This document shows positions 2,083 to 23,379 of a DNA stretch of 24,918 bases, one piece after another (position 1 is the first letter of the stretch; the number at the start of each line of letters is the position of its first letter). Source of the DNA: Nitrososphaeria archaeon. Its GTDB lineage: Archaea > Thermoproteota > Nitrososphaeria > JACIWG01. The notes beneath the pieces were generated by a model that was not told where the DNA came from, did not search any database, and worked only from the letters and a program-made list of their open reading frames with translations. Location of the stretch: assembly GCA_050011875.1 (NCBI GenBank), contig JBEKIG010000024.1, positions 1-24,918 of the forward strand. The letters are read 5' to 3'. Position numbers and translations under genes: made by a program.

Positions 2083-3366
2083 ATGACTTTCGTAACAGGT
2101 AATACATCTACCACAATTGATGCGATTCTAAAAGAATATTATGATGATGGTGCTCTCGTAAACGAGACATACATTGACAATCCACTTTGGGCACGTATGT
2201 CCAAGGCAGAAGCTCTTGGTAACGTAACTGGTAGGCACTTTGTGCATCCAGTGGTTATCGCTACTTCACAAGGTCGTAGCAGAAGCTTTACACAAGCACA
2301 GTCTCGTGGTCAGGCTACAAATGAAATGGCTTATGACTTCTTAGTCCCACGTGTGACTAACTATCAGCTTGCAACAGTATCAACCCAGGCTGTTCTACAG
2401 ACCAAGGGTGATCGTGGTGCATTCATTGACATTCTAACTCTTGCAACTGATGACGCAGTGCGAAACCTTGGTCTTGCACAAGCTCACAGCATGTATGGTA
2501 ATGGTGGTGAAGCAATTGGGCAGATTGGAACAATTGGTGGAACATCCAATTCAGTTATTACTTTTGCTCAGGCAGACCAATGCCTAAACTTCGAAGTCCA
2601 GATGGAATTAGACGCAGCCTCTGATGATGGCTCGACTGGTTCAACAACTGTTGCTGCTTATGGCACCAACGCTCATGGTCTTTATGTTATCGCAGTAGAT
2701 AGAACTGCAAATACAATCACTGTTGGAACTGCTGCTGGCGTTGCCTGTGCAGTTACAGATGCAGCTGATGGTATTCCAACAGCAGCAGATGGTTATTACC
2801 TATTTGGTCGTGGTGATAAAGGTCTTGGTATGCAAGGCATTCAAGCCTGGATACCTTTTGGTGGTCCATCATCTGGCGACAGCTTCTTAGGTGTCACTCG
2901 TACAGTAGACCCACAGCGTTTGGCTGGCAACTGGCTTGATGCTTCAAGTCTTGCAGTTGAAGACGCATTCATTACAGCTTCGCAGGTCGTTGCAAAGGCT
3001 GGTGGAAAACTAACTCACTTCTTCGTTCCATTTACCAAGTATGCCCAGCTTCTAAAGAGCCAGTCAGCTAAGGTAACAATCATTGAAGAGGTTAATCCAG
3101 ATATTAGCTTCGATGGTCTCCAAGTCTTGACCCCCAAAGGTCCAGTTCTTGTAATCCCAGATCGTAACTGCCCAAGCAATAGAATGTTTGGTCTAAATAT
3201 CGACACTTGGACTTACACTCACGTTGGTGATCCAGTTCAGATGTTCAATCTTGATGGTAACACTTGGCTTCGTCAAGCAACTGCTGATGGTCTTGAGATT
3301 CGTTTCTTCTCCATGGGCAACCTTGTTTGCAGAGTTCCAGCTCACAACATCACAATGGCTTGCTAA
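2083..3366 (+). CDS. Major capsid protein (HK97 fold inferred)
   Basis: 427 aa. The N-terminal LKEYY...YIDNPLW and C-terminal GNLVCRVPAHN patterns resemble phage capsid proteins. It has a GAGG SD, a biased codon usage suggesting high expression, a 3' hairpin, and sits at the head of the structural module. Confidence 0.85.
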   Translation: MTFVTGNTSTTIDAILKEYYDDGALVNETYIDNPLWARMSKAEALGNVTGRHFVHPVVIATSQGRSRSFTQAQSRGQATNEMAYDFLVPRVTNYQLATVSTQAVLQTKGDRGAFIDILTLATDDAVRNLGLAQAHSMYGNGGEAIGQIGTIGGTSNSVITFAQADQCLNFEVQMELDAASDDGSTGSTTVAAYGTNAHGLYVIAVDRTANTITVGTAAGVACAVTDAADGIPTAADGYYLFGRGDKGLGMQGIQAWIPFGGPSSGDSFLGVTRTVDPQRLAGNWLDASSLAVEDAFITASQVVAKAGGKLTHFFVPFTKYAQLLKSQSAKVTIIEEVNPDISFDGLQVLTPKGPVLVIPDRNCPSNRMFGLNIDTWTYTHVGDPVQMFNLDGNTWLRQATADGLEIRFFSMGNLVCRVPAHNITMAC

Positions 3367-3373
3367 TTTTAGC

Positions 3374-3416
3374 GATAATGTGTGGGCTGGTTATATAATG
3401 ATCAGCCCCCATTATC
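3374..3416 (+). terminator. Long hairpin just after the capsid gene (mRNA-stabilising or partial terminator)
   Basis: GATAATG..GGGCTGGTTAT-ata-ATGATCAGCCC..CATTATC, an imperfect inverted repeat starting 8 nt after the stop. No clear U-tract. Confidence 0.55.
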
Positions 3417-3447
3417 AAATAACTTTCTAACATAAAGGTAAAATAAA

Positions 3448-3837
3448 ATGCCATTTGGTTATAATCAGATTTTCACAGACATTCCAGAATCATGGATAAC
3501 AGCAGGTGTCGTATCCATTGGTACAACTGGAGCCCCAACATTCACCACAAAAAAGCCATCTGGTCTTATTTCAAGTATTACCAGAACTGGCATAGGTGCA
3601 TATACACTCGCATTATCACAAGGCTTTCCAGAATATGAGTTCTTCAAGGCTGAAGTAATAGGTGCTGATGGTTATACTATTAGAACAGAAACAATTACTA
3701 TTGGGACAACTCCAACAGCAACTTCTGCCACTCTACCAGTTATAACTATCCAAGCAGTATCAGGTAGTTCAGCAGCTGAACTTCCATCAAGTTCTAAGTT
3801 CTGCTTCTTACTAATCGTAAAGAAAATGAGTCTATAA
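3448..3837 (+). CDS. Putative capsid decoration/minor head protein
   Basis: 129 aa, T/S/G-rich with a beta-strand pattern, AAAGGT SD, directly downstream of the capsid gene. Confidence 0.55.
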   Translation: MPFGYNQIFTDIPESWITAGVVSIGTTGAPTFTTKKPSGLISSITRTGIGAYTLALSQGFPEYEFFKAEVIGADGYTIRTETITIGTTPTATSATLPVITIQAVSGSSAAELPSSSKFCFLLIVKKMSL

Positions 3838-3838
3838 A

Positions 3839-4087
3839 ATGGACGAAAAGAAACCTGGACTTGCAATTCTAATTGGACATGCTCTTGCTGAAAAAGGCAA
3901 GGCTAAGCACGATCCATTATCAGAAGCTCCAAAAGATGATGGGGAAGCAAAAGATGATGGTGGTCTCGACGAACATGTTCATATGATAGCAGAAGACATG
4001 ATAGCAGCAATTCATGAGAAAGATGTAGATAAACTCGCAGACTTACTCAAAGAAGCGTTTGAATGCATGGATGACAAATTAGTATAA
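3839..4087 (+). CDS. Small acidic hypothetical protein of the head module
   Basis: 82 aa, coupled to the previous stop, D/E/K-rich and helical. Confidence 0.7.
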   Translation: MDEKKPGLAILIGHALAEKGKAKHDPLSEAPKDDGEAKDDGGLDEHVHMIAEDMIAAIHEKDVDKLADLLKEAFECMDDKLV

Positions 4088-4108
4088 TTAGTTTATTATA
4101 ATTTAGAT

Positions 4109-4149
4109 TAAGAGCCTGACCAGATAAGAGAAGATTTGGCAGGCTCTTA
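4109..4149 (+). terminator. Intergenic hairpin closing the head gene cluster
   Basis: TAAGAGCCTG-a-CCAGAT...ATTTGG-CAGGCTCTTA, with a 10-bp perfect outer stem. No U-tract. Confidence 0.55.
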
Positions 4150-4188
4150 GCATATGGAATATTCTCATATATAATAGAGGCAAACAGT

Positions 4189-4908
4189 ATGGCTACCACA
4201 TTACAAAATATCATTGACCTGACTCGCTATCGTTCAAATATGGAAAACAATTTCTTTGTAACTGATGCAGAACTAACAATCTATATAAATAATTCACTCG
4301 CAGAACTCGATGACATTCTTGTAACAGACTATGAAGACTATCGAGTTTCTTCATTTCAGTCAGTCATACCAACTGATGGCACATCAAATACTATTCCAAT
4401 CCCATCCAACCTTTATAAGCTGCGTGGGGTCGATTACCAGATTAACCACGAACAGAATGGAACATACTGGCTAACATTATTTCCATTCCAAATGCCAGAA
4501 CGTAATAGACAGCGTAATGGTTTAACAAATATTCTTATTCCATATCGCACAGGTCTTTCATATAGATTAGAAGATACACAAATTATGATAATGCCACAGA
4601 TGCAAGCAGGTGGAACATATCAGGTATGGTTCACGCCCAAGTTCGTTCCACTGGTTGAGACAACTGACACGCTAAATATCCAAATGGATACGCAGGCTTG
4701 GGGTGAATACGCTGTTGTAGATTGTTGTGCCAAGATATTTAATAAGCAAGCTCTTGATCCATCAGGCTTCTTGGCAGAGAAAGCAGCCTTACAGCAAAGA
4801 GTTCGTGGTGCAATGAAGAATAGAGATGCAGCTGCTCCCAAACGCGTTTCTAATGTTCGCTTTCAAGATAATGATTTTGGTGCTCCATTTGGGTGGGATA
4901 ATTTTTAA
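4189..4908 (+). CDS. Head-tail adaptor/tail tubular A-like protein
   Basis: 239 aa. The N-terminal helices TLQNIIDLTRYR...VTDAELTIYINNSLAEL and the C-terminal helical hairpin match the phage adaptor pattern. Synteny between capsid and tail genes. Confidence 0.7.
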   Translation: MATTLQNIIDLTRYRSNMENNFFVTDAELTIYINNSLAELDDILVTDYEDYRVSSFQSVIPTDGTSNTIPIPSNLYKLRGVDYQINHEQNGTYWLTLFPFQMPERNRQRNGLTNILIPYRTGLSYRLEDTQIMIMPQMQAGGTYQVWFTPKFVPLVETTDTLNIQMDTQAWGEYAVVDCCAKIFNKQALDPSGFLAEKAALQQRVRGAMKNRDAAAPKRVSNVRFQDNDFGAPFGWDNF

Positions 4909-4923
4909 AATGGTATAAATAAT

Positions 4924-5268
4924 ATGTTTAAGGTATTTCGTAAACAAGTTCTATCAGTCAAAGAGTTGGCTACACCAGAAAATCTGTTAAAGGTTATAAA
5001 TACTATACAGCAGAACATTTCTGATACGACAGATAACATGGCTCGCAAAGTACAAAGTGACTCAATAATTTTAACAAATATATCTCTCAAATCTGGAAAA
5101 AATAATATAATTAATCACACACTTAGTCGTAAGCTAACTGGATGGAAGATAGTTAGACAAAGAGCAGAAGCCAGAATCTGGGACACACAAGACAGCAATC
5201 CATCACCTAACCTAACACTTTGGCTCTCAACTGGGGCTGATGTAATCGTAGATATTGAGGTTTTTTGA
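4924..5268 (+). CDS. Hypothetical virion protein (coiled coil plus beta domain)
   Basis: 114 aa with INHTLSRKLTGW, an H-x-L-[GS]-R-type motif common in small phage tail proteins. Confidence 0.65.
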   Translation: MFKVFRKQVLSVKELATPENLLKVINTIQQNISDTTDNMARKVQSDSIILTNISLKSGKNNIINHTLSRKLTGWKIVRQRAEARIWDTQDSNPSPNLTLWLSTGADVIVDIEVF

Positions 5269-6745
5269 CTTGAACTCTTGTTATAATCCAACAGTTGGTC
5301 AAGAACCAGGTCCAGCTTATGCTTCAGATATCTCTGGAGACCTAACTAAGATTGCAGAGCATACTCATACTGGTGCTTCTAATACTGATGGCTATCAGAT
5401 TCCAGCAGCTGGCTTGAATATTAATGCAGATATTTCTATGCAAGACCACAATCTAACTAATGCTCGTTCAGTTAGAATGCAATCTCAATCAGGCACATTA
5501 TCTGGCACAGGTGATGTAAGTTGTATTTATGTAGATGGTGGAAATCTTTGGTTTAATAACTCAACTGGAACGCCAGTTCAGATTACAGCTGGTGGAGCAG
5601 TTGATGTCACAGTTGCAGCATCTTATACAATCGATGCTGTTTCAACCAATTTAACAATTCCATATACAGCATTATATAATATTGTAAATGTTAATTCAAG
5701 TTCATCTGCTGTAACAATTACACTTCCAGCTGCCAATACAGTTGCAGGTGGTCGTTATTTTATAATCAAAGACATTCAAGGTTCAGCAGCCACAAACAAT
5801 ATTACAATTAGAACCAATGGTGATACATTCAATGGTGGAGCAACATCAATTACAATTTCTACACCATTCCAAGCAGTTATGGTTGTTGGAGATGGTATTT
5901 CAGTTTGGGGCACATATCCATTTGATAAGTCAGCCTATGAACAAGGCGATGGTTATCTAACATTTAATGGAAATACTTTTGCCACAGCACCAGGCATTAA
6001 GATGAATGGTGAGACCTGTATCTATTTAGGCTCAAATGCTTCAATCATAAGCTATGGCACAGGTCAATATGGTGGCATTCGCAATAATGGAACATTGACA
6101 AGCCAAGGCGTAATCTATCATGCAACTGGCGACAATGATTACTTTGCATCTGGTTCTCAGTTTAACTTAACAGCTGGAGCACAAGCAGAGTTTGGGGCTG
6201 GCTCAACTGTTCTAATGTCTCAACCACCAATCTTCATAAATACACAAATAAGAACATTAGTTAATTCAATTATTAATGGTTTCTCATATGGAGCTGCTGG
6301 TAACTGGGCTCCATTATATTCTGGTGGATTGCTTTGTGGTGTTGTTGGCTCAACTTGGGTTATTCCATTGATTAAAGTTCATAATGGAGCAACATTATCT
6401 TCAATTTCAATCTCATTCAGGGTAGGTTCGTCTCACCTTCCAGCAACAGGTCCATCAATACAAATGTTGAGAGTCAATGCTGTAACCAGTGTAAATTCTT
6501 ATATGTCAAATACAAATCCAACCCAGTATTATTCATTGCCTGGTAATGCAAACGCCTATTACAATAATGGAAACATTAACACATTAACATTTACTTGTAA
6601 TGAGAATAATGTAATTGATAATACTACATATGAATATATTCTTGTTCTGGTAGATGAATCAGGTTCTGGTTCAGCAGGTGGAAACACTTATTATTCACCA
6701 GTTTGTTCATTCACTAATATCACTTCACTTGGCTGGAGCATTTAA
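5255..6745 (+). CDS. Tail fibre/spike-like structural protein (start uncertain: TTG 5270 or +1 frameshift from the upstream gene)
   Basis: 496 aa, G/T/S/N-rich, with an EHTHTG motif and a VTITLPAA...YFIIKD...NNITI fibre-type domain. No in-frame ATG near the 5' end. Confidence 0.7.
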   Translation: MRFFDLNSCYNPTVGQEPGPAYASDISGDLTKIAEHTHTGASNTDGYQIPAAGLNINADISMQDHNLTNARSVRMQSQSGTLSGTGDVSCIYVDGGNLWFNNSTGTPVQITAGGAVDVTVAASYTIDAVSTNLTIPYTALYNIVNVNSSSSAVTITLPAANTVAGGRYFIIKDIQGSAATNNITIRTNGDTFNGGATSITISTPFQAVMVVGDGISVWGTYPFDKSAYEQGDGYLTFNGNTFATAPGIKMNGETCIYLGSNASIISYGTGQYGGIRNNGTLTSQGVIYHATGDNDYFASGSQFNLTAGAQAEFGAGSTVLMSQPPIFINTQIRTLVNSIINGFSYGAAGNWAPLYSGGLLCGVVGSTWVIPLIKVHNGATLSSISISFRVGSSHLPATGPSIQMLRVNAVTSVNSYMSNTNPTQYYSLPGNANAYYNNGNINTLTFTCNENNVIDNTTYEYILVLVDESGSGSAGGNTYYSPVCSFTNITSLGWSI

Positions 6746-9700
6746 TGGCTTTCATTCAACCCACAACAGTGCCACTTTCATTTCAAGGTGGCATCAACTC
6801 CAAGACTGATGCATTACAGCTCCAACCACCAGCTTTATTGGAGTTGCAAAATGCTCAATTCTCGAAGATTGGTCAGCTTAATAAGAGATTTGGATACGAC
6901 ATTCTTTCCACACAAATTATGGATGGCACGAATATTGGATCAGCTGTTGCTATTGACAACTTCAATAATGAGCTTAATCTTTTTGACAATAGTAATATCT
7001 ATACTTATATTTCTTCTAATGGAACTTGGGCTAATCGTGGAGCTGCCATATCACTAATCAATACCAACAATAATATTATCAGAATGGATAACGCCCAGCA
7101 AATCAATCCAGATAGTAATTATTGTAATGGTATAGAAGTTTATGTTTGGGAAGATAGTCGTGGTGGCATTCGCTATTCCATCATAGATTCTGAAACAGAT
7201 TCATATGTTGTTTCTGATAAGATATTAAATGGAAATGGTCAGCAACCTAAGGTCGTTGTCTTCGATAATATTTTCTATATTTTCTATAATGATGGAATAG
7301 ATACCTTCTGGTATGCAACAATCAATCCATCAAATCCAGAAATATTAACAATTCCAATCCCACTTGTTTCAGATTGTATGCCAACTGGATTTTGCTATGA
7401 TGCCTGTGCATCGTCTGATGGCTATATTTATGTAGCCTATACTCAACTCTATGATACCAACCAATATGTAACAACAATTAGGTTTAATAAAACTACTATA
7501 CCACAAACAATACAATGTCATGTTATTTATAATACTGATATTATTTCTTGTCTTTCTATTCTTGTAGATAGTCATGATAATTGTTGGGTATCATTTGGAC
7601 AATCTTTTCAAGGCGTTTGGTCAGTTCAGTCTATCGTCATTACAAATTATTTAACACCAACATATACTATTTATCAAGTTGATTCATTACAAACAGCCAC
7701 AATTGCAATGGTTGAGTCGCTTAATCTTGGAAGCATTCAGATAATCTATGAAGTTGTTGGAGATCAATCTTATAATCAACTAACAAAATCTTGCACAGTA
7801 AATGCAAGTGGCACAATAATTCCAATTGGCACATTGCGTTCTGTTGGTATTGCCACGAAGCCTTTTACTTATAACAATGAGATTTTCATCAACCTTACCT
7901 ACCAGTCAGCGTTGCAGTCAACCTATTTTACAGTTTATCTTACAGAATCGCCATTCACGATTGTAGGCAAGGTGTCAGCCCAAGTTGGTGGAGGCTTGCG
8001 AACCAACTCAATGCTCGCAGAAGTTGCTTCTCCAAAATCAGGTCAATTCATTTGGTCCAATCTTGTTAAAGGTCAATTCATTTCAGAAGATAATACAAGC
8101 TTCTCATTGCTTGGCATCAATTCTACATTAACAGATTTCACAAATGTTAATAAGTTTAATTCTGTAACGTTCAGCAACAATTTACTTTTCGTTGGAGGTA
8201 TTCTACAAAGTTATGATGGCGTCTCTGTGGTTGAACAGAACTTCCATCTATTCCCAGAGAATGTAACAGCAACGCCAAATAACAATGGTGGTTCTGGTGC
8301 ATTGTCTGTTGGTCAATATCAGTATCAGGTTGTCTATGCTTGGACTGATAAGTTTGGGCAAATCCAATACTCATCACCATCAGTTCCAGTCACAGCCACT
8401 TGCACAATTGTGAATGATAGCGTTTCAATCTTTATACCTACATTAAGGTTGACTGCAAAGCAGAATGTAATTATAAAGATTTATAGAACACAGGTAAATG
8501 AAACTACATTCCAAGAGGTTACATCAGAGTTAGCTCCATTGTTAAATGATCCAACAACTGATGTAATTCTATTTGAAGATGCAGTTGCAGATATCGATAT
8601 AGCTGGCAACCAAACCATCTATACAACAGGTGGAGTTTTACCTAATGCAGCACCTCCATCTTGCTCTATGATTACGCTATTCCAAGATAGAGTTATGATC
8701 TCTGGACTTGAAGACCCACATTTGATTTGGTTCAGCAAGAATAGAGTTGATAATACTAACTTCTCTACTGTGCCTTGTGAGTTCTCTGCTGAATTGACCT
8801 ATGCTGTTTCACAAAAAGGTGGTCCAATTACAGCCATTGCAGTTATGGACCAGAACCTTGTAATATTCAAAGCATCTTCAATCTATTTACTTTCGGGTGA
8901 TGGGCCAAATGATGAAGGTGGTGGCGACACATTCCCAGACCCACAATTGATTACTACTTCTATTGGATGCACAAATCCAAATAGTATTGTATTTATTGAT
9001 GATGGGCTAATGTTCCAATCTCCAAATAAAGGTATTTGGCTATTACCAAGAAGCGTTTCAGCCCCAACTTATATTGGTCAGAATGTTGATGATACAGCAT
9101 TATCATATGTAGTTTCATCTGCAACTGCTGATGTAAATAGTAATCAGGTAATCTTCACAACCTCAAATGGTCCAGCAATGGTTTATGATTATTTTGTAAA
9201 TCAATGGAGCCTTTGGACAAATCACAATTCTGTTGATGGAATTATATTTGATGGCAATTTCTGTTTTGTAAAGAATAATGGAAACGTCTATATTCAAGAT
9301 AGAACAATATTCTATGATGGATATATTGATGGTTATCAACAAGGTTATGATATGGAATTGACTACACCTTGGATTAGTTATAGTAGTCTTATGGGTTATC
9401 AAGCCATATTTAGAGCATTCTTGCTTGGAACATATAAATCTCCACATACTTTAAATGTTTCACTTGGCTATAATTTCAATCCAGCATTTACAAGTTTTGC
9501 TACAATAAATGCAACAAATACAGTTGGGGCAACAATGTGGGGTATGGATGGATATACGTGGGGTGGTGGCTCTGTTTGGGGTGAAGACTATTCTCCATAT
9601 ATTTATCAGATTAATTTCCCAATTCAGAAATGCACAAGTTTTAGAATTAAATTGAGCGATACTCAGTCAGTCAATGCTTATATGGAAGCGTTTGCAATTT

Positions 9701-9777
9701 CTGGAATGTTATTCGAGCTTGGTCAGATGCCAGCTGGTGTTCGTATTCCAACAACTAAGAAGGTTGGGGCTCAATAA
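6745..9777 (+). CDS. Tail tubular B/nozzle-like protein (P22 gp10/T7 gp12 analogue)
   Basis: 1,010 aa. N-terminal FQGGINSK...LQNAQF...KRFG and later QDRVMISG...IWFS, ITAI...LVIFK and IGC...SIV propeller-type segments are typical of podovirus nozzles. Synteny agrees. Confidence 0.75.
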   Translation: MAFIQPTTVPLSFQGGINSKTDALQLQPPALLELQNAQFSKIGQLNKRFGYDILSTQIMDGTNIGSAVAIDNFNNELNLFDNSNIYTYISSNGTWANRGAAISLINTNNNIIRMDNAQQINPDSNYCNGIEVYVWEDSRGGIRYSIIDSETDSYVVSDKILNGNGQQPKVVVFDNIFYIFYNDGIDTFWYATINPSNPEILTIPIPLVSDCMPTGFCYDACASSDGYIYVAYTQLYDTNQYVTTIRFNKTTIPQTIQCHVIYNTDIISCLSILVDSHDNCWVSFGQSFQGVWSVQSIVITNYLTPTYTIYQVDSLQTATIAMVESLNLGSIQIIYEVVGDQSYNQLTKSCTVNASGTIIPIGTLRSVGIATKPFTYNNEIFINLTYQSALQSTYFTVYLTESPFTIVGKVSAQVGGGLRTNSMLAEVASPKSGQFIWSNLVKGQFISEDNTSFSLLGINSTLTDFTNVNKFNSVTFSNNLLFVGGILQSYDGVSVVEQNFHLFPENVTATPNNNGGSGALSVGQYQYQVVYAWTDKFGQIQYSSPSVPVTATCTIVNDSVSIFIPTLRLTAKQNVIIKIYRTQVNETTFQEVTSELAPLLNDPTTDVILFEDAVADIDIAGNQTIYTTGGVLPNAAPPSCSMITLFQDRVMISGLEDPHLIWFSKNRVDNTNFSTVPCEFSAELTYAVSQKGGPITAIAVMDQNLVIFKASSIYLLSGDGPNDEGGGDTFPDPQLITTSIGCTNPNSIVFIDDGLMFQSPNKGIWLLPRSVSAPTYIGQNVDDTALSYVVSSATADVNSNQVIFTTSNGPAMVYDYFVNQWSLWTNHNSVDGIIFDGNFCFVKNNGNVYIQDRTIFYDGYIDGYQQGYDMELTTPWISYSSLMGYQAIFRAFLLGTYKSPHTLNVSLGYNFNPAFTSFATINATNTVGATMWGMDGYTWGGGSVWGEDYSPYIYQINFPIQKCTSFRIKLSDTQSVNAYMEAFAISGMLFELGQMPAGVRIPTTKKVGAQ

Positions 9778-11440: not shown

Positions 11441-11456
11441 TAAATGGAGAATTAAT

Positions 11457-12191
11457 ATGGACCCAGAAGATATTGGATCAGTAGCAGGCGATAGTGGTGG
11501 TGGCGATAGTGGTGGTGGCATGGGTGGAATGCTATCAGGTATTATGGGTGGGGGCAAAAAGTCTTCAAATAATGGTGTTTTAAGCCAAATAGTTTCAGAA
11601 CAAATGGCAGGCACCCAAAACTCAACTCCAAACCTAACTGGAACAGCCCCAACTCAACCTTCTCCAACAGGTGTTTCAAGTTCTTCAAGTTCTCCATCAA
11701 CTGCAACAGCAGCACAAGCTCCAACAACAGTACAAACTACATCATCTGGTGATATTAATAGACAAAATCCATATCAAACAGGTCCAACAACTCAACAACA
11801 GATTGGTTCTACAATCCAGAACTTTCAGAAAGGTATGGGAAATGCTCAAAAACAATCATCTGCCCCAATGCCTTCGACATCTATGCCAGGCAATACATAT
11901 GCAGCTCTTTTTGCTTCTCAAACTACTCCAGGTAATTTGGGTGGTGGTCAGATTGGCGTACAAAGTCCATCTGCCATATCAAATGTGCAACCAGTGCAAG
12001 TACAGTCGCCTACTGTACCTTCTGCACCTCAAGTTGCGATGCCTCCACCTGCTCCACCAGCACCAATGCCAAGTATGCAATCAGTGTCAGATGTAAGAGC
12101 AAAATATAAAATCCAAAATGCACAAGATGAAGTTGATAGATTCTTATCAAATATCTATAATAACCTATTAGCAAAACGAGGTAATAAATAA
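11457..12191 (+). CDS. Low-complexity S/T/P/Q protein with a truncated Peptidase_S74-like C-terminus
   Basis: 244 aa with a GGAG SD. It ends SDVRAKYKIQNAQDEVDRFL..., which aligns with the S74 start of the next gene. Confidence 0.6.
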   Translation: MDPEDIGSVAGDSGGGDSGGGMGGMLSGIMGGGKKSSNNGVLSQIVSEQMAGTQNSTPNLTGTAPTQPSPTGVSSSSSSPSTATAAQAPTTVQTTSSGDINRQNPYQTGPTTQQQIGSTIQNFQKGMGNAQKQSSAPMPSTSMPGNTYAALFASQTTPGNLGGGQIGVQSPSAISNVQPVQVQSPTVPSAPQVAMPPPAPPAPMPSMQSVSDVRAKYKIQNAQDEVDRFLSNIYNNLLAKRGNK

Positions 12192-13612
12192 TGCCTTTTG
12201 TAAATGGACAATGGATGCCACAGCAAATGCAGGCACCTCAAGCAGCACAACAATTTCAACAGCCAACAGCACCACAGCCACAAATACAACCACAGGCTAT
12301 GAATCAAATGGCTATGATGCAGGCTCGCCCACAATTCCAAAACCAATTGGGTATGCAGCAAAGCAATCCACAATCGCAGTTGTATAGACCACAACAGCAA
12401 TTTCAGCCACAATCTCAATTATATAGACCTCAACAGCAAATGCCTTCTAATATGATGCAATTAGGTCAAAATAATCCATTTGGCAAACAGGCTGGACCAC
12501 CCCCAATGCAAGGTGGTTATGGTCCCCCACAGCAATCGAATTACATGCCAGCCCAGCAAGGTTGGGGTGGTCCAAACTTTGGTGTAGCACAAGGTCAGCA
12601 ACAGCAGGTAGGTCAATCAGTTGAGCAAAGTGTTCAACCTAATTCACCACAATCTGTTCAGAACTTTATGTCAGCACTAAATAAAGTAGGTGCTGGAACT
12701 AATAACCAATTTATGAATGGTGCTGGACAACAAGGTGCTGGAGCACAAGGTGGTTTCGCAGGTTTTGGTCAGAATGGTTATCAAGGCATGATGGGGACAG
12801 GTGTTGCAGCAGGTTCACCAACAGGTGGTGGTTTCTATGGTGGAGGTTATCAAGGTAGCTATGGTGGTGGAAATGGTTCTATGGGACGTGCTGCAAATCA
12901 AGCTGCTAGTGGAATGACTTTCTTAGGCGATCAAGGTGGTGGACCTGGAAACAATACATTTAATACACCAAGTCTAACTAATGGTGCTTATGTAAATGCA
13001 TCATCAAATGCACCAAATCAAAATAATAATCCAAGTATGGGAACTCAGGCAGGTTATCAGCAACCAACTCCATGGGCTCAACCAGGTAATCAGGCTCCAG
13101 GTGTTTCTGGTTCGTGGTATCCAGATACTGACACAGGTTGGCAAGCATATGGTGGTCAATTATTTGGTGCTTCTCCAATGGCTCCATCTCAATCTGGTTC
13201 ATATTATTCACAAAATTCACCATCTGATTATTCTATGAGTGCTGGTTCTGCTGCCAATTATGCCACATCAGATATTAGAGCCAAGACCAATATTCTTCCA
13301 GGCAAAGAAGAATTACAAGAGTTTTTAGACGCATTAGGTATATATTCATATGAGTACAAGAATAAGAACGATGGTGATGGAAGACGAATTAGTCCAATGG
13401 CTCAAGAAATTGAATCAACTCCATTGGGCAAAGTTGCTGTTTCCCAGAGACCAGATGGCATCAAATATGTCGATTATGGTAAGTTGGCTGGAACGCAATT
13501 GGCAGCGATTGCAATGCTTAACCAAAAATCAAAAGAATTAGAAGCTAAAATTACAACAATTCTTAGCAATAAGTTTAATTCGCGAGTAATTAACGAGCAT
13601 GGGAAAAAATAA
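12191..13612 (+). CDS. Q/G/P/N-rich protein with a C-terminal Peptidase_S74 intramolecular chaperone domain
   Basis: SDIRAKTNI...YSYEYK...MAQEIE...VDYGKL...coiled coil is the canonical S74 signature, starting at about 13268. Confidence 0.8.
   Translation: MPFVNGQWMPQQMQAPQAAQQFQQPTAPQPQIQPQAMNQMAMMQARPQFQNQLGMQQSNPQSQLYRPQQQFQPQSQLYRPQQQMPSNMMQLGQNNPFGKQAGPPPMQGGYGPPQQSNYMPAQQGWGGPNFGVAQGQQQQVGQSVEQSVQPNSPQSVQNFMSALNKVGAGTNNQFMNGAGQQGAGAQGGFAGFGQNGYQGMMGTGVAAGSPTGGGFYGGGYQGSYGGGNGSMGRAANQAASGMTFLGDQGGGPGNNTFNTPSLTNGAYVNASSNAPNQNNNPSMGTQAGYQQPTPWAQPGNQAPGVSGSWYPDTDTGWQAYGGQLFGASPMAPSQSGSYYSQNSPSDYSMSAGSAANYATSDIRAKTNILPGKEELQEFLDALGIYSYEYKNKNDGDGRRISPMAQEIESTPLGKVAVSQRPDGIKYVDYGKLAGTQLAAIAMLNQKSKELEAKITTILSNKFNSRVINEHGKK
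12368..12439 (+). repeat. 39-bp-period coding duplication (PQSQLYRPQQQ x2)
   Basis: The peptide is repeated exactly, with synonymous DNA differences between copies. Confidence 0.85.
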
Positions 13613-15423
13613 TGGCAGACACAGATAACACACAACAGACACCACCTGTTTCAGATCAGCCAGGTAAAGCCACAGTTGCACCAACTACAATAACTGGAAA
13701 TCCACCAACACAAGGTTCATTGGCTTATATTGGTGAAGGTGCTCCAGCCCCATCTACAAATCCACTATCTACACAAGGTTATGTAGATCAACAAGTTGGA
13801 AGTGCAGAAGAACGCAAGATGATTACTTCTCAATTGGCAGAAGCACAAGCTAAAGGCACAGATACACAAGCAAATCTATTAGCACAAGCAACACAAGAAC
13901 AAGATAGAATGCTTAATGGTGATCCAGTTAAACGCCAACAATCAATGAATTTATATCAGGCAGCGAAAACTCATTTGGCAGCAAACCCAGACTCACAAGA
14001 AGCAAAAGATGCACTGTATCAGGCTAAACTTGGAACAGAACTAAACTCTGGAGCAAAAGATCAATGGGCAAGAGCAAAGTTAGATGCAGATAATAGAGAT
14101 GCAGAATTAAGAAAAAAAATTGCAACAGTTCAGGCACAACAAATCGATCCAGATCATTGGTGGAATCAAAAATCTACTGGAAGTAAAATAGCAGCAGGTA
14201 TTGGTATTATATTGGGTGGAGCAGGTGCTGGATTACAAAGACGTGGTGGTGAAAATCCAGCAATGCAAGTAATTAATAGAGCAGTTGATCAAGATATTGA
14301 TGCACAAAAAACAAATATTAGAAATAATATGGAAAATAGTTGGAAGCAAATTGCAGCAACTCATGAATTAGATGATAGTGCATTTAATAGAGAATTACAT
14401 AATCAGGTTTGGCAATCTAATTATAAAAATGCAGCATTAGAAACTGTTAAATTACAATTACAACAAGCAGCAGCAAAAACTCAAAGTGATGTTACAAGAC
14501 AGAACGCATTAATTGGAATACAAGATTTAACAGATCAACAAGCCAAAATACGTAATGGTTTATACAATATGCAACAAGCATCCATGGCAGCAAATCTTCA
14601 ACGTATTCGTAAGAATGGTGAAGATGTTAGTAAAGCAGCTCAAGATTATGCCAAAGAAAAAGGTGTTGATTTAGAAACAGCAGAAAAAGCAGTGTGGGGA
14701 ACTGATACAAGAGCAAAAGAACTAATCTATGCAGGCTATGCTCCAACTTGGATTACACAAGCAGAAGGTCAAAAACATCTTGCCCAAGTGGCTATTGCAG
14801 CAAAAATTAAATCAGGTATTGCTCCAGAAGTGGCGATGCAACAAGTTCTTGCAGACCCAAAGTTTGACGCATTACGCAGATGGAGCACACCAGTTGGTAC
14901 AGTTGTTCCAAATCCAGAAGTAGATAAAGATGTTAGAGAACGCACAGTTACAATCAATGGACAAGACTATCTTGCCAGAGATGCAAAACAAGCAGAAGCA
15001 GCAGCAACAGCAGCAAACTCAGCTCTGGAAGTAAAGAAAATTAATGCACGTATTCTTGCATTAGCAAATAAAGGTGGAATACTTGGACCATCAGAACGAG
15101 CTGAAATGGATTCATTATTAGATATGGGTGCATTACATTATCCAAGAATGCAAACTGGTTCTATGAGAGTTAATGATACAGAAATCCAAATGGGTAAAGA
15201 TACTTATCAAGGTAAAGGTGATTGGTATCGTGGTGATATTTTAAGTAGAAAAGCCGGACATCTTACTGCAATTAATCAAGAAGCAGATCAGAGATTACAT
15301 GATGCACTTGATGGATTACAACCACTAAATCGTCAAGGTCCAGGCGTATCTCAACCACAGCAATCACAAGTTGCTCCAGGTCAAGCAGTTGGATTAAGTG
15401 GTAAAGTCTATGGGGTAAAGTAA
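13612..15423 (+). CDS. Internal virion/ejection protein
   Basis: 603 aa, helical and Q/A-rich, with a Gly-rich hydrophobic segment KIAAGIGIILGGAGAGL. Lies in the ejection cluster. Confidence 0.6.
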   Translation: MADTDNTQQTPPVSDQPGKATVAPTTITGNPPTQGSLAYIGEGAPAPSTNPLSTQGYVDQQVGSAEERKMITSQLAEAQAKGTDTQANLLAQATQEQDRMLNGDPVKRQQSMNLYQAAKTHLAANPDSQEAKDALYQAKLGTELNSGAKDQWARAKLDADNRDAELRKKIATVQAQQIDPDHWWNQKSTGSKIAAGIGIILGGAGAGLQRRGGENPAMQVINRAVDQDIDAQKTNIRNNMENSWKQIAATHELDDSAFNRELHNQVWQSNYKNAALETVKLQLQQAAAKTQSDVTRQNALIGIQDLTDQQAKIRNGLYNMQQASMAANLQRIRKNGEDVSKAAQDYAKEKGVDLETAEKAVWGTDTRAKELIYAGYAPTWITQAEGQKHLAQVAIAAKIKSGIAPEVAMQQVLADPKFDALRRWSTPVGTVVPNPEVDKDVRERTVTINGQDYLARDAKQAEAAATAANSALEVKKINARILALANKGGILGPSERAEMDSLLDMGALHYPRMQTGSMRVNDTEIQMGKDTYQGKGDWYRGDILSRKAGHLTAINQEADQRLHDALDGLQPLNRQGPGVSQPQQSQVAPGQAVGLSGKVYGVK

Positions 15424-15424
15424 T

Positions 15425-18100
15425 ATGAATCAATCTCTAATCTCGCCTTCTGGAGAAGTAATTCAAGTTCCAGATGAGCAAGTACAAGATGCTCTTAAAG
15501 ATGGGTTTAAGGTGGCTGGCAACCAACCATTGCCAGACTTATCTCAAACGCCAACTAAACCTGTTGAGCCATTTACTAATGAAGGTGTAGTTGCACCAAG
15601 AGCAACAATTCAAGCAGTTTCGCCACAAGGCAAAGTTGTAAATCTGTCAAAAGAAGAAGCAGCAGATGCATTTAAAGATGGTTTTAAACCAATTGAAAAT
15701 GTAATTAAAGAACAGAAAATAGATTCTGCATCAGATAAATTAGCAGCAGAACTGATAAATAATTCTGCTACTAATGGATATGATTTAACTGTGGCTTCTG
15801 GTTTATTAGATACACTATCTCTTGGTGGTGCTGACAAAGCAGAAAAAGCAATTACCAATTGGCAAAATAAATCTCTTGGTCCAGATCAAATTAAGGCTAT
15901 TCAAGAGCATTATGGTGTTGATCCATCTGATATGGGTGAAGTTCATGTAAGAGCCTATAAAAAGATTCAAGCACAAAATCCAATTACAAATGTTATCTCA
16001 CAAGGTATAGGTGCTATTGCTCCAATGGTTCTTACTGGTGGTGCAGGTATGTTTGGTGAAGGTCTTGCAGCCACTAAGATTGCTGCTGGAACAAAAGCAG
16101 CAATTGGTGCCACATCAACTCTTGGTAGAATTGGTTCTGCTGTTGCTGGTGAAGCATTGGCAGGTGCTGCTATTGCTGCTCCCCAAGCAATTGCACAAGC
16201 AGCAATTCAACAAGACCCCAAAGGTGTTGCAGAAACACTTGGATGGGGATTATTAATGGGTGGTGGTTTGGGATTATTAGCCCAGAGTGGTAAAGAAGCT
16301 ATTATGGGCGTTAAAGCAGCAAAAGAATATATTGCTGGCAAAACTATGCATATTGCAGAAGCACCTATTACAGAATTACCAGAAGGTCTGACAGAAGGCG
16401 TTAATGCCAATCCAGTTGGAACTGAACCTATTAAAACACCAACAAGTGAAGCAGATAAAATGCTTCTTGGACAATTTGGAGTGACTCAAAAAGAAATTGC
16501 TGAGTTTGGAACGCCTGCTCAAAGAGCACAAAAAGTTGGAATGCTCATTAATGAAATTGGTGCAGATAAAATTAGTAATATGAGTAGAGCAGAATTAGCT
16601 CAAAAAATAATTGATATTGGAGATTTATCTGGGCAAAGAATTGGTGGATTTATTAAAAATGCTGATGCTGCAATAAAAGAAGAACCTGAACTTATGCAAT
16701 ATGCTCCAAATAGAACAGATCAAATTAATAAACTTGAAAAATTAGCAGAAACGCTTGACAATCCATTACAAAAAACAGAATTATCATATGTGAAAAAATC
16801 AATTCAGTATTTAAAAGAAATGACTGATGAGCCAACTATTACTTTTGCAAAACAACAAGAACTTAAAGAATTACTACAAAGTAAAGTAAATTATAAATCT
16901 GTTGAAAATCCAAGTCTAAATGGTATTAAAGCAGAAGTTGCAAAAATAGCAAAAGAAGAAATGGAATTAGCTGCAGATCGTATTGCTGAAAAAAGTATGT
17001 ATGCTCCAATGATAGAAAGTTGGAAACATCAAAAAGATTTGTATAAATTAGCACAAGAAATAATGCCTGGTGCGATGCGAGGTGTAAGTGAAATTGCCAC
17101 AGTTGGTTCTCATATTACTGGATTTGGTGGTGGTGCTCTTGCTGGTCATGCTTTAAGCCCATTACTTGGACCATTTGGACCATTGGGAACTGCAATTGGT
17201 GCTGGTATAGGTAAATTAGTAGATCGTTGGACTCGTGATAAAGGCATTACAAAATTGTCAATGTGGCTTCGTAAAAATGCAGAAAATGTAAATATGCCCA
17301 ATTATCTTGTAACTGATGCAGCAACTGCATTGAAATCTAAATTACAAGACATTCCACAAATGTTGCGTATGGCAGCAGAACATCCAGAAATAGATATTAT
17401 CAAATCTGCATTAGGTGATGAAGCTAATGGTTTATCTAAAACACAACAATTTGATAGACTTGGAAATCATTTAGCAAATATGGTTTCTAATCCAGAAAAT
17501 ACAAAAGTATCAATGCAACAATTGCTTTCACCAATTGCACAATACCATCCAGAATTAGCATCTGGTGTTATGGATGCTATGATGACAAAGATTCAAGTTC
17601 TTCAGGATGCATTTCCCAAATTGATGACTGCTCCACAACCATTCCAAAAAGATGTAAAACGTGAGCCAACAACACAAGAAATTAATGATTTCAAGAAGAT
17701 ATTGGCAATTGCTGAAAATCCATTCCATGTTCTTGAAGAAATAAAAGCTGGAACTTTATCACAAAAACAAGTAGATGCATTAAATCAAATGAATCCAGCA
17801 ATAGCAACTCATATTCAAGAAGAAATTATGGAATCAGCTTATAATCAATCTGAACTTCTAGATCTTAATTATAATCAAAGACTTGCTGCTTCTGTGCTTA
17901 TGGGACAGCCAATGGAGAGATCATTGGTTAATCTTCAGGCTTTACAGTCTGGATTTGTTCCACCAACTCCACAACAAGGTCCATCAGCCCCACCATCAGG
18001 TAGAGGCAGAGGTGGTTCTAAATTAGATGGTGGCAAAATGCCAGGTGCTCAATATACTCCATCTCAAAGAATTGGTGGGGGTATTAAGTCTGGCAAATAA
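15425..18100 (+). CDS. Large internal virion/DNA transfer protein
   Basis: 891 aa with two N-terminal SPxG..V...DA.KDGFK repeats and two G/A-rich hydrophobic regions. Last gene of the ejection cluster. Confidence 0.6.
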   Translation: MNQSLISPSGEVIQVPDEQVQDALKDGFKVAGNQPLPDLSQTPTKPVEPFTNEGVVAPRATIQAVSPQGKVVNLSKEEAADAFKDGFKPIENVIKEQKIDSASDKLAAELINNSATNGYDLTVASGLLDTLSLGGADKAEKAITNWQNKSLGPDQIKAIQEHYGVDPSDMGEVHVRAYKKIQAQNPITNVISQGIGAIAPMVLTGGAGMFGEGLAATKIAAGTKAAIGATSTLGRIGSAVAGEALAGAAIAAPQAIAQAAIQQDPKGVAETLGWGLLMGGGLGLLAQSGKEAIMGVKAAKEYIAGKTMHIAEAPITELPEGLTEGVNANPVGTEPIKTPTSEADKMLLGQFGVTQKEIAEFGTPAQRAQKVGMLINEIGADKISNMSRAELAQKIIDIGDLSGQRIGGFIKNADAAIKEEPELMQYAPNRTDQINKLEKLAETLDNPLQKTELSYVKKSIQYLKEMTDEPTITFAKQQELKELLQSKVNYKSVENPSLNGIKAEVAKIAKEEMELAADRIAEKSMYAPMIESWKHQKDLYKLAQEIMPGAMRGVSEIATVGSHITGFGGGALAGHALSPLLGPFGPLGTAIGAGIGKLVDRWTRDKGITKLSMWLRKNAENVNMPNYLVTDAATALKSKLQDIPQMLRMAAEHPEIDIIKSALGDEANGLSKTQQFDRLGNHLANMVSNPENTKVSMQQLLSPIAQYHPELASGVMDAMMTKIQVLQDAFPKLMTAPQPFQKDVKREPTTQEINDFKKILAIAENPFHVLEEIKAGTLSQKQVDALNQMNPAIATHIQEEIMESAYNQSELLDLNYNQRLAASVLMGQPMERSLVNLQALQSGFVPPTPQQGPSAPPSGRGRGGSKLDGGKMPGAQYTPSQRIGGGIKSGK

Positions 18101-18165
18101 TAACATGGAATAATTTAACATATATATGAGACTTTTGAAGGCTCGTTTCTGAAAGGTAATTTACA

Positions 18166-18585
18166 ATGACTGATTTCTCTGGCAAACTATTAGATGGCTA
18201 CGCTCTATCCACAACTGATGGATATAATTTTACAACTCCATGGCTCGATGTTCATGGGGCACAAAACTTCTCGCTTACAGCGATGATTACAGGTGGAACT
18301 GTTACAGGTGTTCTAACCTTGCAGCAATCCAATGCAAAAGAGGCTGGAAACTCTAATGGTGTTTATCCATTGGGAGCAACCTCAACCACAACATCTCCAC
18401 CAGATGCCTGTAATGTGCCAACTGATGCAGCAATGGGGCTAACTTCCATAACTCTGGCTGCGTCTGCAACGCCTGTTGCTCTGGCTCAACATCACATAGG
18501 TTATCACTGGGCAAGATTATCTGGCGTTCTTTCTGTTAAGAACCAAACTGGCAAAGTGGATATCTGGTTTCATTGGAAAAAATAA
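18166..18585 (+). CDS. Small beta-rich virion protein
   Basis: 139 aa, AAAGGT SD, G..TLQQSN...YHWARL beta-sandwich pattern, directly upstream of the fibre gene. Confidence 0.6.
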   Translation: MTDFSGKLLDGYALSTTDGYNFTTPWLDVHGAQNFSLTAMITGGTVTGVLTLQQSNAKEAGNSNGVYPLGATSTTTSPPDACNVPTDAAMGLTSITLAASATPVALAQHHIGYHWARLSGVLSVKNQTGKVDIWFHWKK

Positions 18586-18602
18586 TCTAAAAGGCGAATA
18601 AT

Positions 18603-21600
18603 ATGGCAACCAAGTATGTAATGAATGGGACGATAAACTCGCCTCCATATACAAAAATTACGTGGCAGGTTTGGAATACTCCAGACATGACAGGTGCCTT
18701 ATCAGGCGTATCTAATCTTACAAATATATTTGTAGATTATACAGTTAATGACGATGTGGTCGCTGGGGGAAACGAGCAAGTTGCTCAAGTCCCACCTCCA
18801 ACACCTGAACAAAATGCAGTTACACCAAAAGTCTGGTATGTAATGAAGGCATTGTGTTCTGCTACTACGCCTGCTAATGGTTTAATTACTTGGAAGGTTG
18901 CCAATGATCCAGATTTAACTGGACAGTATTCTGGTTTTGAAACTGATACATTATCTAATATTGTAATTGATTATACAATAAATGATAGCGTTACATCTGG
19001 ACCACAGGCTGTTCCAGACTACCAATTAATTTATGGAGCTGCCTCTGGTGATTTGACAGGTGTTTATCCAGACCCAATTGTTGTTGCTATTCAAGGTCAG
19101 TCAATATCACGTGTTCCACCATCTTCTGGTCAAGTATTAGAGTGGAATGGAACTAATTGGATACCAACAGCACTTCCAACAGCACTTCCACCAGATGGTT
19201 CTGCTGGTGGCGATCTATCTGGAACATATCCAAATCCAACTGTTGCTAAATTACAAGGCAATACATTATCTGCAAGTTCTCCAAGACCTGGACAATTACT
19301 TGGATTTAATGGTTCAGCTTGGGTTCCAGAAGCTGCACCAGTTACATTTACTGCTGGTGGTGATTTATCTGGAAATAATTCAAGTCAAACAGTTATTGGT
19401 ATTCAAGGTAAATCAATTTCATCAACTTCTCCAACAGATGGATATGTTCTTACTTGGAGTGCTGCAACTTCTAAATGGGCACCTGCTGCTGTAACAACAG
19501 GTACAACAACATTGGGTGGAGATGTAACTGGTATTTCAAGTGCAAATACAGTTATAAAACTTCAAGGTATTGTAGTAAAATCTGGAACTCCAACTGATGG
19601 CTATGTATTAACATATTCAACGGCAGATAGTCAATGGGAACCAAAATCTGCACCAATTGGGTTTACTGCTGGTGGTGATCTTTCTGGCACAAATAGTTCC
19701 CAAGAAGTTACTGGTATTCTAAATAAATCATTACCATCTCTTCCGGTTTCAGATGGTTATTTAAATTATACTGGGTCTGCTTGGACATTTTCACCAATAA
19801 TTATGCCAACATCATTGCCACCTAATGGTTCTGCTGGTGGTGATCTATCTGGAAGTTATCCAAATCCAACTGTTGCTAAAATAAATGGTCATGCAGTTGC
19901 TTCTACTTCTCCAACTGATGGTTATTTATTAACTTGGAGTGCAGCAGATTCTCAATGGGAACCAAAAACTGCTCCAACACCTTTTACTGCTGGTGGAGAT
20001 CTATCTGGAACAAATACAAGTCAAACAGTTGCTGGCATTCAAGGCCAAACATTACCGGCTTTGCCGGTTTCTGATGGATATCTAAACTATACTGGGAGTG
20101 CTTGGCAATATTCTACAATAACCATTCCAACAACATTACCACCTTCGGGGGCTGCTGGTGGTGATCTTTCTGGAACATATCCAAATCCAACGGTTGCTCA
20201 GGTTAATGGTCATCCAATTTCTTATTATATTCCAACAAGTCTTCCACCTAATGGATCTGCTGGTGGAGATCTCTCTGGCACATATCCAAATCCAAAAGTA
20301 ACTCAACTTGATGGTTATGCAATTACACCACTTGCTACTGGTTATTTAAACTGGACTGGTTCTGCAATGGCTTGGACTGCTTTGCCTTCTGCACTACCAC
20401 CTAATGGAAATGCAGGTGGCAATCTCTCTGGAACTTATCCAAATCCAACAATATCTTCTCTTGCAGTTTCTAAACTTGCTGCTGGTAATGCTGGACAAAT
20501 TTTACTGAGTAATGGATCGCCAAATCCAACTTGGATAACAGTTATTGGCGATGTAACAATCTCATCTTCTGGTGTGACTACTGTCGCAAAGATTTACAAT
20601 ACTTCTGTTTCTTCTACTGCCCCAACTGATGGATATATCCTTCAATATCATTCATCTGGAACTCAATGGGCACCTACAAAAATTACAGGCGATGTAACAA
20701 TATCTAATGCTGGGGCAACAACTCTTGCAGCAATTGATGGACATACACTTCCATCCCCATCTGGATCAAATACTGTTTTAACCTACAACTCTGGCTCATT
20801 ATCCTGGGGAGCTGGTGGTTCTGGTATTACTGCTTTAACAGGTGATGTTACTGCATCTGGTTCTGGTTCTGTGTCTGCCACTGTTGCTGCAATTTCAGGC
20901 TCTTCGCCAATTGCAATAACTCCAAACGTTCTATCTTGGGCTGCTGCTTCAACTGCCCCAGAAATTACGCAAACTGCTGCTGCCTCAACATCTGGTGGAA
21001 ATGGTGCTGCTGGTATTAACTTAACCATTCAGGCACAGGCTGGTCAATCTGCAGCAGGTACTGGCAATAATGGTGGTGCAGGTGGTAATATAATTCTTCA
21101 GCCAGGTGCAGGTGGAGCTTCTCTTTATGCAACTGTTGGTTCTGCTGGATATGTAGAAGTTGTAAATGAAACATTATTCTTACCACAAACTTATGGATCA
21201 ATTACATATGGTTCAGTTAACTCTCAATTATTAACTTTGCAAACAACATCTGGTGCATATAGTTCTATTACAGTTTTAACATTGCCATTACCTGGAACTT
21301 CTGGTGCCCCATGTACAAAAGGTGTGCTTTATGTAGATATATGTGTTGCTATGGCAAGCACGACAACTGCTGTTGGAGCAACAATCAAGGCGTGTGGTGG
21401 CTGGGCTGTTGTATCTGCTGGATCACCAACTGCAATGGGCGTAACAAACTTACTAAATATTGGAACTAACTCTGGTGCTCCACCTTCTGGATGGGCAGCA
21501 ACAATGGCATTAGATGGTGGTTCTAATAACGTTTTAGTTAAGGTAACTGGTGATTCTTCACTTACAGTAGATTGCACTATTCAGGTTGACTGGAGATATG

Positions 21601-23184: not shown

Positions 23185-23379
23185 ATGTCATTAATGAGTA
23201 ATCATCAAATTATAGCAATATCATCTGGGGCGTCACTGGCTGCCTGTCAAGGTAATGGTGCCTCATCATTTGAGGTGGGTTTAGCTTTATGGTTGGCAAC
23301 CCATATATTATCGTATGTATGGAGTAAAAAAGATGTGGCTTATAAGTTTATTAAAAGCTTGTTTTCAAGGCATTCTTGA
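23185..23379 (+). CDS. Small membrane protein (holin-like candidate)
   Basis: 64 aa, GGAG SD, hydrophobic FEVGLALWLATHILSYVW and a basic tail. Confidence 0.5.
   Translation: MSLMSNHQIIAISSGASLAACQGNGASSFEVGLALWLATHILSYVWSKKDVAYKFIKSLFSRHS

Follow-up and report, generated by a model that had tools for sequence, protein, structure and literature searches.

A strict Asp-Gly-Tyr tripeptide enriched in predicted capsid, tail and fibre proteins of a podophage lineage: a candidate recognition motif

The stretch of DNA studied here, referred to below as the window, is 24,918 nucleotides long and is the entire contig JBEKIG010000024.1 (C24) of an assembly labelled Nitrososphaeria archaeon (source bin of 2.64 Mb, 119 contigs). 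By Pfam and PHROGs searches on its 21 open reading frames (ORFs), together with gene order, it carries the structural half of a tailed phage. The tripeptide Asp-Gly-Tyr (DGY) occurs in frame exactly 17 times, in six of the encoded proteins (the major capsid protein, a 129-aa post-capsid protein, the spike, the tail nozzle, a 139-aa protein and the long fibre), and is absent from the other 15 ORFs. An earlier sequence-only reading had listed these sites, all of which were recovered in frame, and had proposed that DGY is a recognition tag for an enzyme glycosylating the virion exterior, possibly together with a VioB-like gene at position 22571. Our analysis retains an ordered, protein-level motif in capsid, tail and fibre proteins, situated mostly in lineage-specific loops, but glycosylation and the link to the gene at 22571 found no support. 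In the best reading of the data, DGY would be a short motif of the particle exterior read in trans, because it is ordered and strict in residue identity, occurs in unrelated virion proteins, is mobile yet stays above expectation, and is overdispersed among homologues.

Enrichment of DGY in the window

Per-protein amino acid composition yields 1.10 expected DGY for all 21 ORFs and 0.63 for the six proteins. No other tripeptide is as over-represented as DGY (Poisson p 5e-15). The runner-up is GTY (13 vs 2.29 expected, p 9e-7), which comes mostly from GGDLSGTYPNP, the opening block of DUF5907 units, a block near-universal in the fibre family (116 of 120 proteins by pattern). After removal of the fibre, ten sites remain against 0.92 expected, in line with the ten sites and about one expected hit reported earlier, and the enrichment persists under composition control, as none of 2000 composition-preserving shuffles reaches ten. 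Under a first-order Markov model, which is conservative since its expectation includes the DG and GY pairs contributed by DGY itself, 17 sites are observed vs 3.26 expected (p 7e-8). Without the fibre the figures are 10 vs 2.54, with a p of 3e-4 that alone fails correction for about 8000 tripeptides. DGY still ranks first under this model. Two pairs of sites are spaced by only 4 and 8 residues, so the sites are not fully independent.

Permuted orders of the same residues are scarce in the window (GDY 0, YGD 0, DYG 1, GYD 3, YDG 3). The five DGY proteins other than the fibre have 25 Asp-Gly pairs, 10 of which continue with Tyr, and 16 Gly-Tyr pairs, of which 10 have Asp in front. NGY occurs only twice in the window, both times outside the six DGY proteins, and these six contain neither DGF nor DGW. 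Units of the long fibre lacking Asp at this position read SGQVL, PGQLL and AGQIL, as had been noted.

A host-wide DGY bias was considered and rejected: the rest of the 2.64-Mb genome contains 107 DGY vs 83.8 expected (1.28x), and on contig C2, where DGY is in excess (24 vs 6.67), single sites in ordinary enzymes account for it. The nozzle gene is followed by genes for six more virion proteins, one with a Peptidase_S74 fibre chaperone domain. This S74 fibre-like protein and its two upstream neighbours contain 12–14% Gly, are poor in Asp and have no DGY. The motif had been described as absent from five 'ejection proteins', the methylase, the acetyltransferase and TnpB; none was found there, but one of the supposed ejection proteins is in fact the S74 fibre-like protein, which also matches a tail-fibre PHROG.

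Protein-level nature of the signal

At the 17 sites Gly is encoded by GGT (7), GGC (4) and GGA (6), Tyr by TAT (16) and TAC (1), and Asp by GAT in all cases. The last value is marginal against the 81% background usage of GAT (about p 0.03), and the deviation is gone in relatives. A nucleic-acid motif (GATGGNTAT on the coding strand) could account for this uniform Asp codon and for the strand bias of GATGGNTAY, found 19 times on the plus strand and never on the minus strand. However, 17 of these 19 occurrences are in frame 0, the Gly codons match background usage, and 2 of the 10 DGY in a complete related genome (G001, see below) use other codons. In five AT-rich loci the GAT:GAC ratio is 48:15, with GAT/GAC and TAT/TAC roughly at background, and in two loci of 66–68% GC the motif is encoded by GAC and mostly TAC (GAC-GGC-TAC). 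A DNA or RNA motif is largely refuted by frame, codon usage and the GC-rich relatives. As for chance combined with repeats and composition, the excess outlasts fibre removal, the Markov control and shuffling, and it recurs in relatives elsewhere in the proteins. Both explanations are hardly credible. The codons track the background, and the signal resides in the protein, as the sequence-only reading had it, and not in the nucleic acid.

Close relatives and turnover of sites

Relatives by capsid protein include three IMG/VR contigs and four short metagenome contigs (58–89% identical). The genome of the relative G001 (loci L012/L013), 37,001 bp long, is complete and has terminal repeats; it contains 10 DGY where 1.52 would be expected, and nine of these belong to the post-capsid protein, spike, nozzle, a 138-aa protein and the fibre. 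In the window and three relatives taken together, the six DGY-bearing families contain 33 DGY vs 1.96 expected; in the three relatives only, where the 'outer' class is not circular (for the window it is, being defined by the DGY proteins), there are 16 vs 1.34. The adaptor and the post-nozzle proteins (inner or unassigned virion proteins) of the four genomes have 0 vs 0.82 expected, and all other ORFs 2 vs 1.08. By these counts, DGY enrichment is a trait of this phage lineage.

The positions of DGY mostly differ among relatives, and the N-terminal site of the spike alone is common to all four phages. Four sites of the window are not found in L001 (capsid 89% identical), which reads AGY, DNL, DGI and NGN there; by this comparison, the window gained them after its split from L001. 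The capsid DGY is found in the window only, with AGY, PGD and NGD in relatives. In the post-capsid protein DGY occupies one column in the window, L001, L008, P0272 and P0273, and another in L002, L003, L009 and L011. All seven post-capsid homologues found in the loci have at least one DGY, with two further sites in L011, and the homologue search gave only two further clusters. Two columns of the nozzle contain DGY in relatives but not in the window, and the 139-aa protein keeps both its sites in the G001 homologue (58% identity). Homologous positions often keep the central Gly (AGY, PGD, NGD, AGV, SGL, DGI, NGN, TGT). These comparisons support the view that DGY evolves as a recognition site would: positions turn over and the number stays well above expectation.

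A separate observation concerns L011, the most distant capsid relative (58%). Its post-capsid protein (L011:1932-3002) is 356 aa long and has three DGY vs 0.05 expected; the next, partial ORF holds one more.

Link at the genome level

With a 120-aa stretch of the fibre as the query, 50 IMG/VR loci with related fibre segments were collected with 10-kb flanks. In the six loci whose fibre has at least three DGY, the other ORFs contain 29 DGY vs 2.86 expected. The 41 loci without DGY in a recognised fibre ORF have 21 vs 23.07 in other ORFs, the fibre ORF not being recognised by the pattern used in 26 of them; three loci with one or two fibre DGY have 0 vs 2.02. The DGY-rich loci are fragments rated 14–45% complete, which implies genomes of roughly 80 to 430 kb, and DGY-rich fibre homologues also occur on contigs of 140–410 kb. 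DGY as a generic trait of phage structural genes was rejected, given 4 vs 1.27 expected in T7 (14 proteins) and the near-expected count in the 41 control loci.

Nozzle, spike and fibre families

At E≤0.001 the nozzle family has 7237 representatives, and 112 of the best 150 have no DGY. The excess declines with distance from the window: 30 vs 5.97 expected at ranks 1–30, 22 vs 7.17 at ranks 31–60 and 27 vs 20.4 at ranks 61–150. In the alignment of 123 sequences (122 homologues and the window) 65 DGY fall into 41 columns. The expected placement in lineage-specific insertions is seen for the four sites of the window, whose columns are gapped in at least 114 of the 123 sequences, but family-wide the tendency of DGY to lie near gaps is modest, being equalled in 25 of 1000 shuffles, and no difference is seen in local entropy (145 of 1000).

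Of the 12 database clusters, 7 retain the first spike site, as do all three related loci; the second is found in the window only. Spike homologues (11 clusters) contain 17 DGY vs 0.81 expected. Six clusters with the conserved N-terminal DGY have ten further sites, and five without it have one. Three of these five read DGA or DGL at that position and have no DGY at all.

Scoring of 8000 candidates gave 2313 fibre homologues at E≤0.001; PF19264 is present in many of the 120 that were listed. The window fibre has no Pfam match at E≤0.01, and the G001 fibre scores 22.1 bits against the PF19264 cut-off of 27; the long-fibre repeats probably belong to this family (DUF5907). The best 119 homologues contain 385 DGY vs 23.1 expected. 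No DGY is present in 76 of them, where even enrichment would leave 8.75, and the other 43 have up to 27. At the corresponding unit position either DGY (147) or N/T/S-Gly-Gln (196) is observed, and the mixed forms DGQ (6) and NGY (4) are scarce. The DGY and xGQ units are distinct subtypes with different spacing and can spread by duplication; the canonical unit accounts for all but 209 of the 385 DGY. Residue identity is strict (DGY 385, DGF 5, EGY 1, NGY 32): Phe, Glu and Asn do not stand in for the residues of DGY. Across fibre, spike and nozzle homologues the presence of DGY is overdispersed, and in fibre and spike it is nearly all-or-none.

Structural context

The AlphaFold2 model of the nozzle (pLDDT 88.8) was matched by Foldseek with SU10 tail chains 7z47_G (E 2e-19) and 7z4b_DW (E ~1e-19), the crAss001 muzzle 7qok_A and T7 tail chains. 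The TM scores are low (0.38–0.43), as expected for a multidomain chain, and on this model the assignment as an SU10/T7-type tail nozzle holds. Residues D225-Y227 close a loop ahead of strand 228-236 in the model, D858-Y860 lie within strand 857-861, D862-G863 form a two-residue turn between strands 857-861 and 864-867 with Y864 starting the latter, and D935-Y937 are in a loop with pLDDT under 50. A sequence search of PDB gave no match for the nozzle, and little was gained with the fibre. Capsid searches of a phage collection and of genome contigs were similarly unproductive.

Candidate enzymes

The search for glycosyltransferase and sugar-nucleotide genes, suggested by the glycosylation proposal, returned none among the 21 ORFs of the window (Pfam and PHROGs) and none in G001 (22 ORFs with Pfam, 20 with PHROGs). 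The other genes of G001 encode homing endonucleases, helix-turn-helix proteins and two glycine-rich fibre-assembly-like proteins. Since these remaining genes offer no recognisable glycosyltransferase, a phage-encoded one is unlikely in this clade.

The gene at 22571 scores 44.1 bits against NeuD/VioB TIGR03570, whose curated cut-off is 160.8. Its best NCBIfam matches are WcaF/WbbJ, all below cut-off, and only the Pfam Hexapep repeat passes; the product is, by these scores, a generic hexapeptide O-acetyltransferase and not VioB. Homologues of this gene, the methylase, the 317-aa propeller ORF, the small ORF 23716-23997 and TnpB were not found in G001. The acetyltransferase was rejected as part of a DGY system, given its absence from G001, which keeps the enrichment, and with it fell the suggestion of a VioB-like partner. 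The 317-aa ORF was also rejected as the DGY enzyme (beta-propeller model, no family match, absent from G001).

Known short sequons include N-X-S/T and the D-(S/T)-(A/I/L/V/M/T) motif of general O-glycosylation in Bacteroidota. In the six proteins the latter is depleted (5 vs 12.5 expected), and N-X-S/T is not enriched (51 vs 41.3 expected). The literature searched made no mention of a 'DGY motif' or of 'DUF5907'.

Discussion

We favour the reading in which DGY would be a short linear motif that one phage lineage carries, under positive selection, on its capsid, tail and fibre proteins, which would face outwards judging by protein type. An Asp-Gly turn, often at the tip of a beta-hairpin or in a lineage-specific loop, would present a Tyr whose hydroxyl matters, and a reader outside the protein, present in some lineages and absent in others, would recognise the unit. 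An enzyme encoded outside the window might then modify the Tyr covalently in the infected cell; this enzyme would come from the host or be a small phage protein that has escaped recognition, and would be neither the acetyltransferase at 22571 nor a recognisable phage glycosyltransferase. We infer both the reader and the Tyr modification, and the covalent step is put forward as a tentative proposal, somewhat short of an even chance. A bolder version, which we regard as rather doubtful, is that DGY marks the site of an undescribed Tyr-directed virion modification used by unrelated virion types among which DUF5907 fibre modules are exchanged, namely a 37-kb podophage clade and phages several hundred kb in size; in the small phages the enzyme would come from the shared host or be a very small, unrecognised phage protein.

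Several points weigh against this reading. The modification is so far a prediction from sequence. G001 contains no kinase or other protein-modifying enzyme recognisable by Pfam or PHROGs, and its non-structural ORFs without matches are at most 205 aa long. The S74 fibre of the four genomes has 0 DGY vs 0.29 expected. Among the 29 DGY outside the fibre in the DGY-rich loci, 16 come from the single locus L046, which has paralogous fibre-like proteins. Because DGY and xGQ are unit subtypes, the coupling of Asp and Tyr in the fibre does not represent many independent events. Two of the four nozzle sites look like a textbook structural hairpin (loop or DG turn, strand-initial Tyr). Finally, inner proteins may differ in fold, and the absence of a turn motif from them may be less telling.

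The glycosylation pathway of the sequence-only reading, encoded by the phage and including a VioB-like gene, could draw on the position of a hexapeptide acetyltransferase 3' of the fibre genes and on the sequon-like behaviour of the motif. We consider it very improbable: the acetyltransferase scores best as WcaF/WbbJ and has no homologue in the DGY-enriched G001, and neither the window nor the scanned ORFs of G001 contain a glycosyltransferase or sugar-nucleotide gene. Moreover, transfer in Tyr O-glycosylation of S-layers is proposed (PMC2943079) to be co-secretional via an O-oligosaccharyltransferase, which is ill-suited to proteins assembled in the cytoplasm. An explanation that requires no enzyme, and is thus consistent with G001, treats exposed DGY hairpin tips as weak non-covalent microsites, a carboxylate plus an aromatic ring, for a glycan or cation of the host surface; tips repeated on the fibre and scattered over capsid and tail would give multivalent adhesion, and lineages would differ as their hosts differ. 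The confinement to capsid, tail and fibre proteins, the seven copies in the window fibre and up to 27 in homologues, and the failure of Phe to replace Tyr or of Glu to replace Asp all fit, as does the finding of the motif both in a podophage and in genome fragments from far larger phages whose fibres are homologous. In hairpin repeats that bind sugars, Asp is typically paired with Tyr or Trp. On the other hand, a tripeptide is too small to form a site alone, its flanking residues are unconserved, no ligand is known, and lone capsid sites would bind very weakly. We judge this explanation unlikely, though worth keeping in view.

It is also conceivable, albeit with a rather low probability, that DGY is an intrinsic folding element, namely a beta-hairpin cap and perhaps a docking point for a fibre chaperone, which is kept by lineage habit without any reader, was inherited with DUF5907-type units and was copied by duplication or recombination into other beta-rich proteins. 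This would agree with the modelled D862-G863 turn and D225-Y227 loop end of the nozzle, with the frequent retention of the central Gly in relatives, with the separate DGY and xGQ unit subtypes, and with the resemblance of the spike site at 5948 (DGYLTFNGNTF) to the fibre unit DGYLNYTGSAW. Yet Asn-Gly is at least as good a turn as Asp-Gly, and NGY is not enriched; the six proteins lack both DGF and DGW; more than half of the DGY in fibre homologues (209/385) lie outside the canonical unit; and the genome remainder and the 41 control phage loci stay at about 1x. Nor would a nearly all-or-none spread over three unrelated protein families be expected of a structural habit.

If the favoured reading of DGY as a motif read in trans is correct, its closest parallels are three-residue glycosylation sequons, which likewise are short ordered motifs with one acidic and one hydroxyl residue and free flanks, occupy loop positions that are gained and lost, and are confined to one protein compartment. 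Unlike in those systems, the candidate acceptor would be a Tyr after Gly and no transferase was found; the known systems also act outside the cytoplasm. Work of Freeman and colleagues from 2023 is said to have found mycobacteriophage virions glycosylated by phage glycosyltransferases whose genes lie beside the structural genes, and no tripeptide sequon is known to have been described for that system. There, as proposed here, the phage would modify the exterior of its own particle, but here neither the window nor the scanned ORFs of G001 contain a glycosyltransferase gene. If the Tyr-directed modification is real, DGY would to our knowledge be the first sequon to be defined for phage particles. 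A Tyr acceptor on a surface-array protein is also known from the S-layer protein SpaA of Paenibacillus alvei, although transfer there is proposed to be co-secretional, and phages have their proteins produced and put together in the cytoplasm; the term 'consensus sequence' does not occur in the review on this system (PMC2943079).

If DGY is indeed read, it would offer phages a simple and portable way to mark the particle exterior. These marks, which sequence alone would suffice to predict, might influence how the host is recognised, how stable the particle is in soil or sediment, or how it escapes host defences. Besides larger phages with homologous fibres, a small virion type of about 37 kb, a podophage, shows the trait. 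Enrichment in a complete 37-kb genome without a recognisable sugar transferase speaks against the idea that the reader is in general a phage glycosyltransferase, and the clean contrast created by overdispersion over three unrelated families should help to find the reader by phylogenetic profiling.

Gene content and genomic context

The features of the window are listed in Table 1. Judging from its genes, the phage is an SU10-like podophage with a genome of about 37 kb, as in its relatives. Gene order fits the description of the post-capsid protein as 'decoration-like', but this name has no other basis.

Table 1. Coordinates of genes and DGY sites in the window, with the grounds for assignment
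Feature	Position	Strand	Grounds or remark
Eco57I-like methylase	158-1924	+	Upstream of capsid gene; no homologue in G001
Major capsid protein gene	2083..3366	+	Weak Pfam SU10_MCP match (E 0.002, below cut-off) and gene order
Capsid DGY (aa 236)	2788-2796	+	
129-aa post-capsid protein	3448..3837	+	No family match; 'decoration-like' from position alone
Post-capsid protein DGY	3667-3675	+	
SU10_adaptor	4189-4908		Pfam; precedes spike and nozzle
Spike/fibre protein	5255..6745	+	N-terminal HTHTG...DGYQIPAAGLNINAD block
Spike DGY	5387-5395 and 5948-5956	+	
Tail nozzle protein, 1010 aa	6745..9777	+	AlphaFold2 model and Foldseek; position after adaptor gene
Nozzle DGY	7417-7425, 9316-9324, 9328-9336, 9547-9555	+	
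S74 fibre-like protein	12191-13612	+	C-terminal Peptidase_S74 intramolecular chaperone domain (E 1.6e-7) and tail-fibre PHROG
139-aa protein before long fibre	18166..18585	+	No family match
139-aa protein DGY	18193-18201 and 18217-18225	+	
Long fibre, 1001 aa	18603..21608	+	DUF5907-type repeats
Long-fibre DGY (first base; 9 bases each)	19437, 19596, 19752, 19917, 20073, 20310, 20628	+	
317-aa beta-propeller ORF	21605-22558	+	Atlas model; overlaps fibre stop
Hexapeptide-repeat acetyltransferase	22571..23179	+	Pfam Hexapep; judged outside the DGY feature
Two small ORFs	23315-23572 and 23716-23997		Between acetyltransferase and TnpB
TnpB, 5'-truncated	24135-24917	-	Contig end; no homologue in G001

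The model of the 317-aa ORF has a pTM of 0.85 and TM scores of 0.75–0.82 to NHL/YncE/lactonase-like clusters. The ORF has no match in Pfam, PHROGs or NCBIfam; on the basis of the model, its product may be a receptor-binding or depolymerase-like tail accessory.

The contig represents an incomplete phage genome, possibly mis-binned. The portal and terminase of the relatives were not found in the bin, where only a distant terminase-like frame is present on contig C25. TnpB provides no tie between the contig and the bin, because only paralogues of at most 40% identity (the best being 40%) occur elsewhere in the bin. Named homologues of the long fibre come from Bacteroidota and Chlorobi. For these reasons any host assignment is tentative. 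Start sites of the contig favour AAGGTAA, and those of the bin favour GGTGA/GAGGT.

No DNA polymerase or other replication gene was recognised by Pfam or PHROGs among the scanned ORFs of G001. This genome has three GIY-YIG homing endonucleases, e.g. L012:9845-10555, 13351-14124 and 17921-18382. The terminase-like frame on contig C25 (locus L004, 10359-10856, minus strand) belongs to a 457-aa open frame with 31% identity to the large terminase of the relatives (E 1.4e-6), a distant similarity that hints at a further region of viral or proviral origin in the bin.

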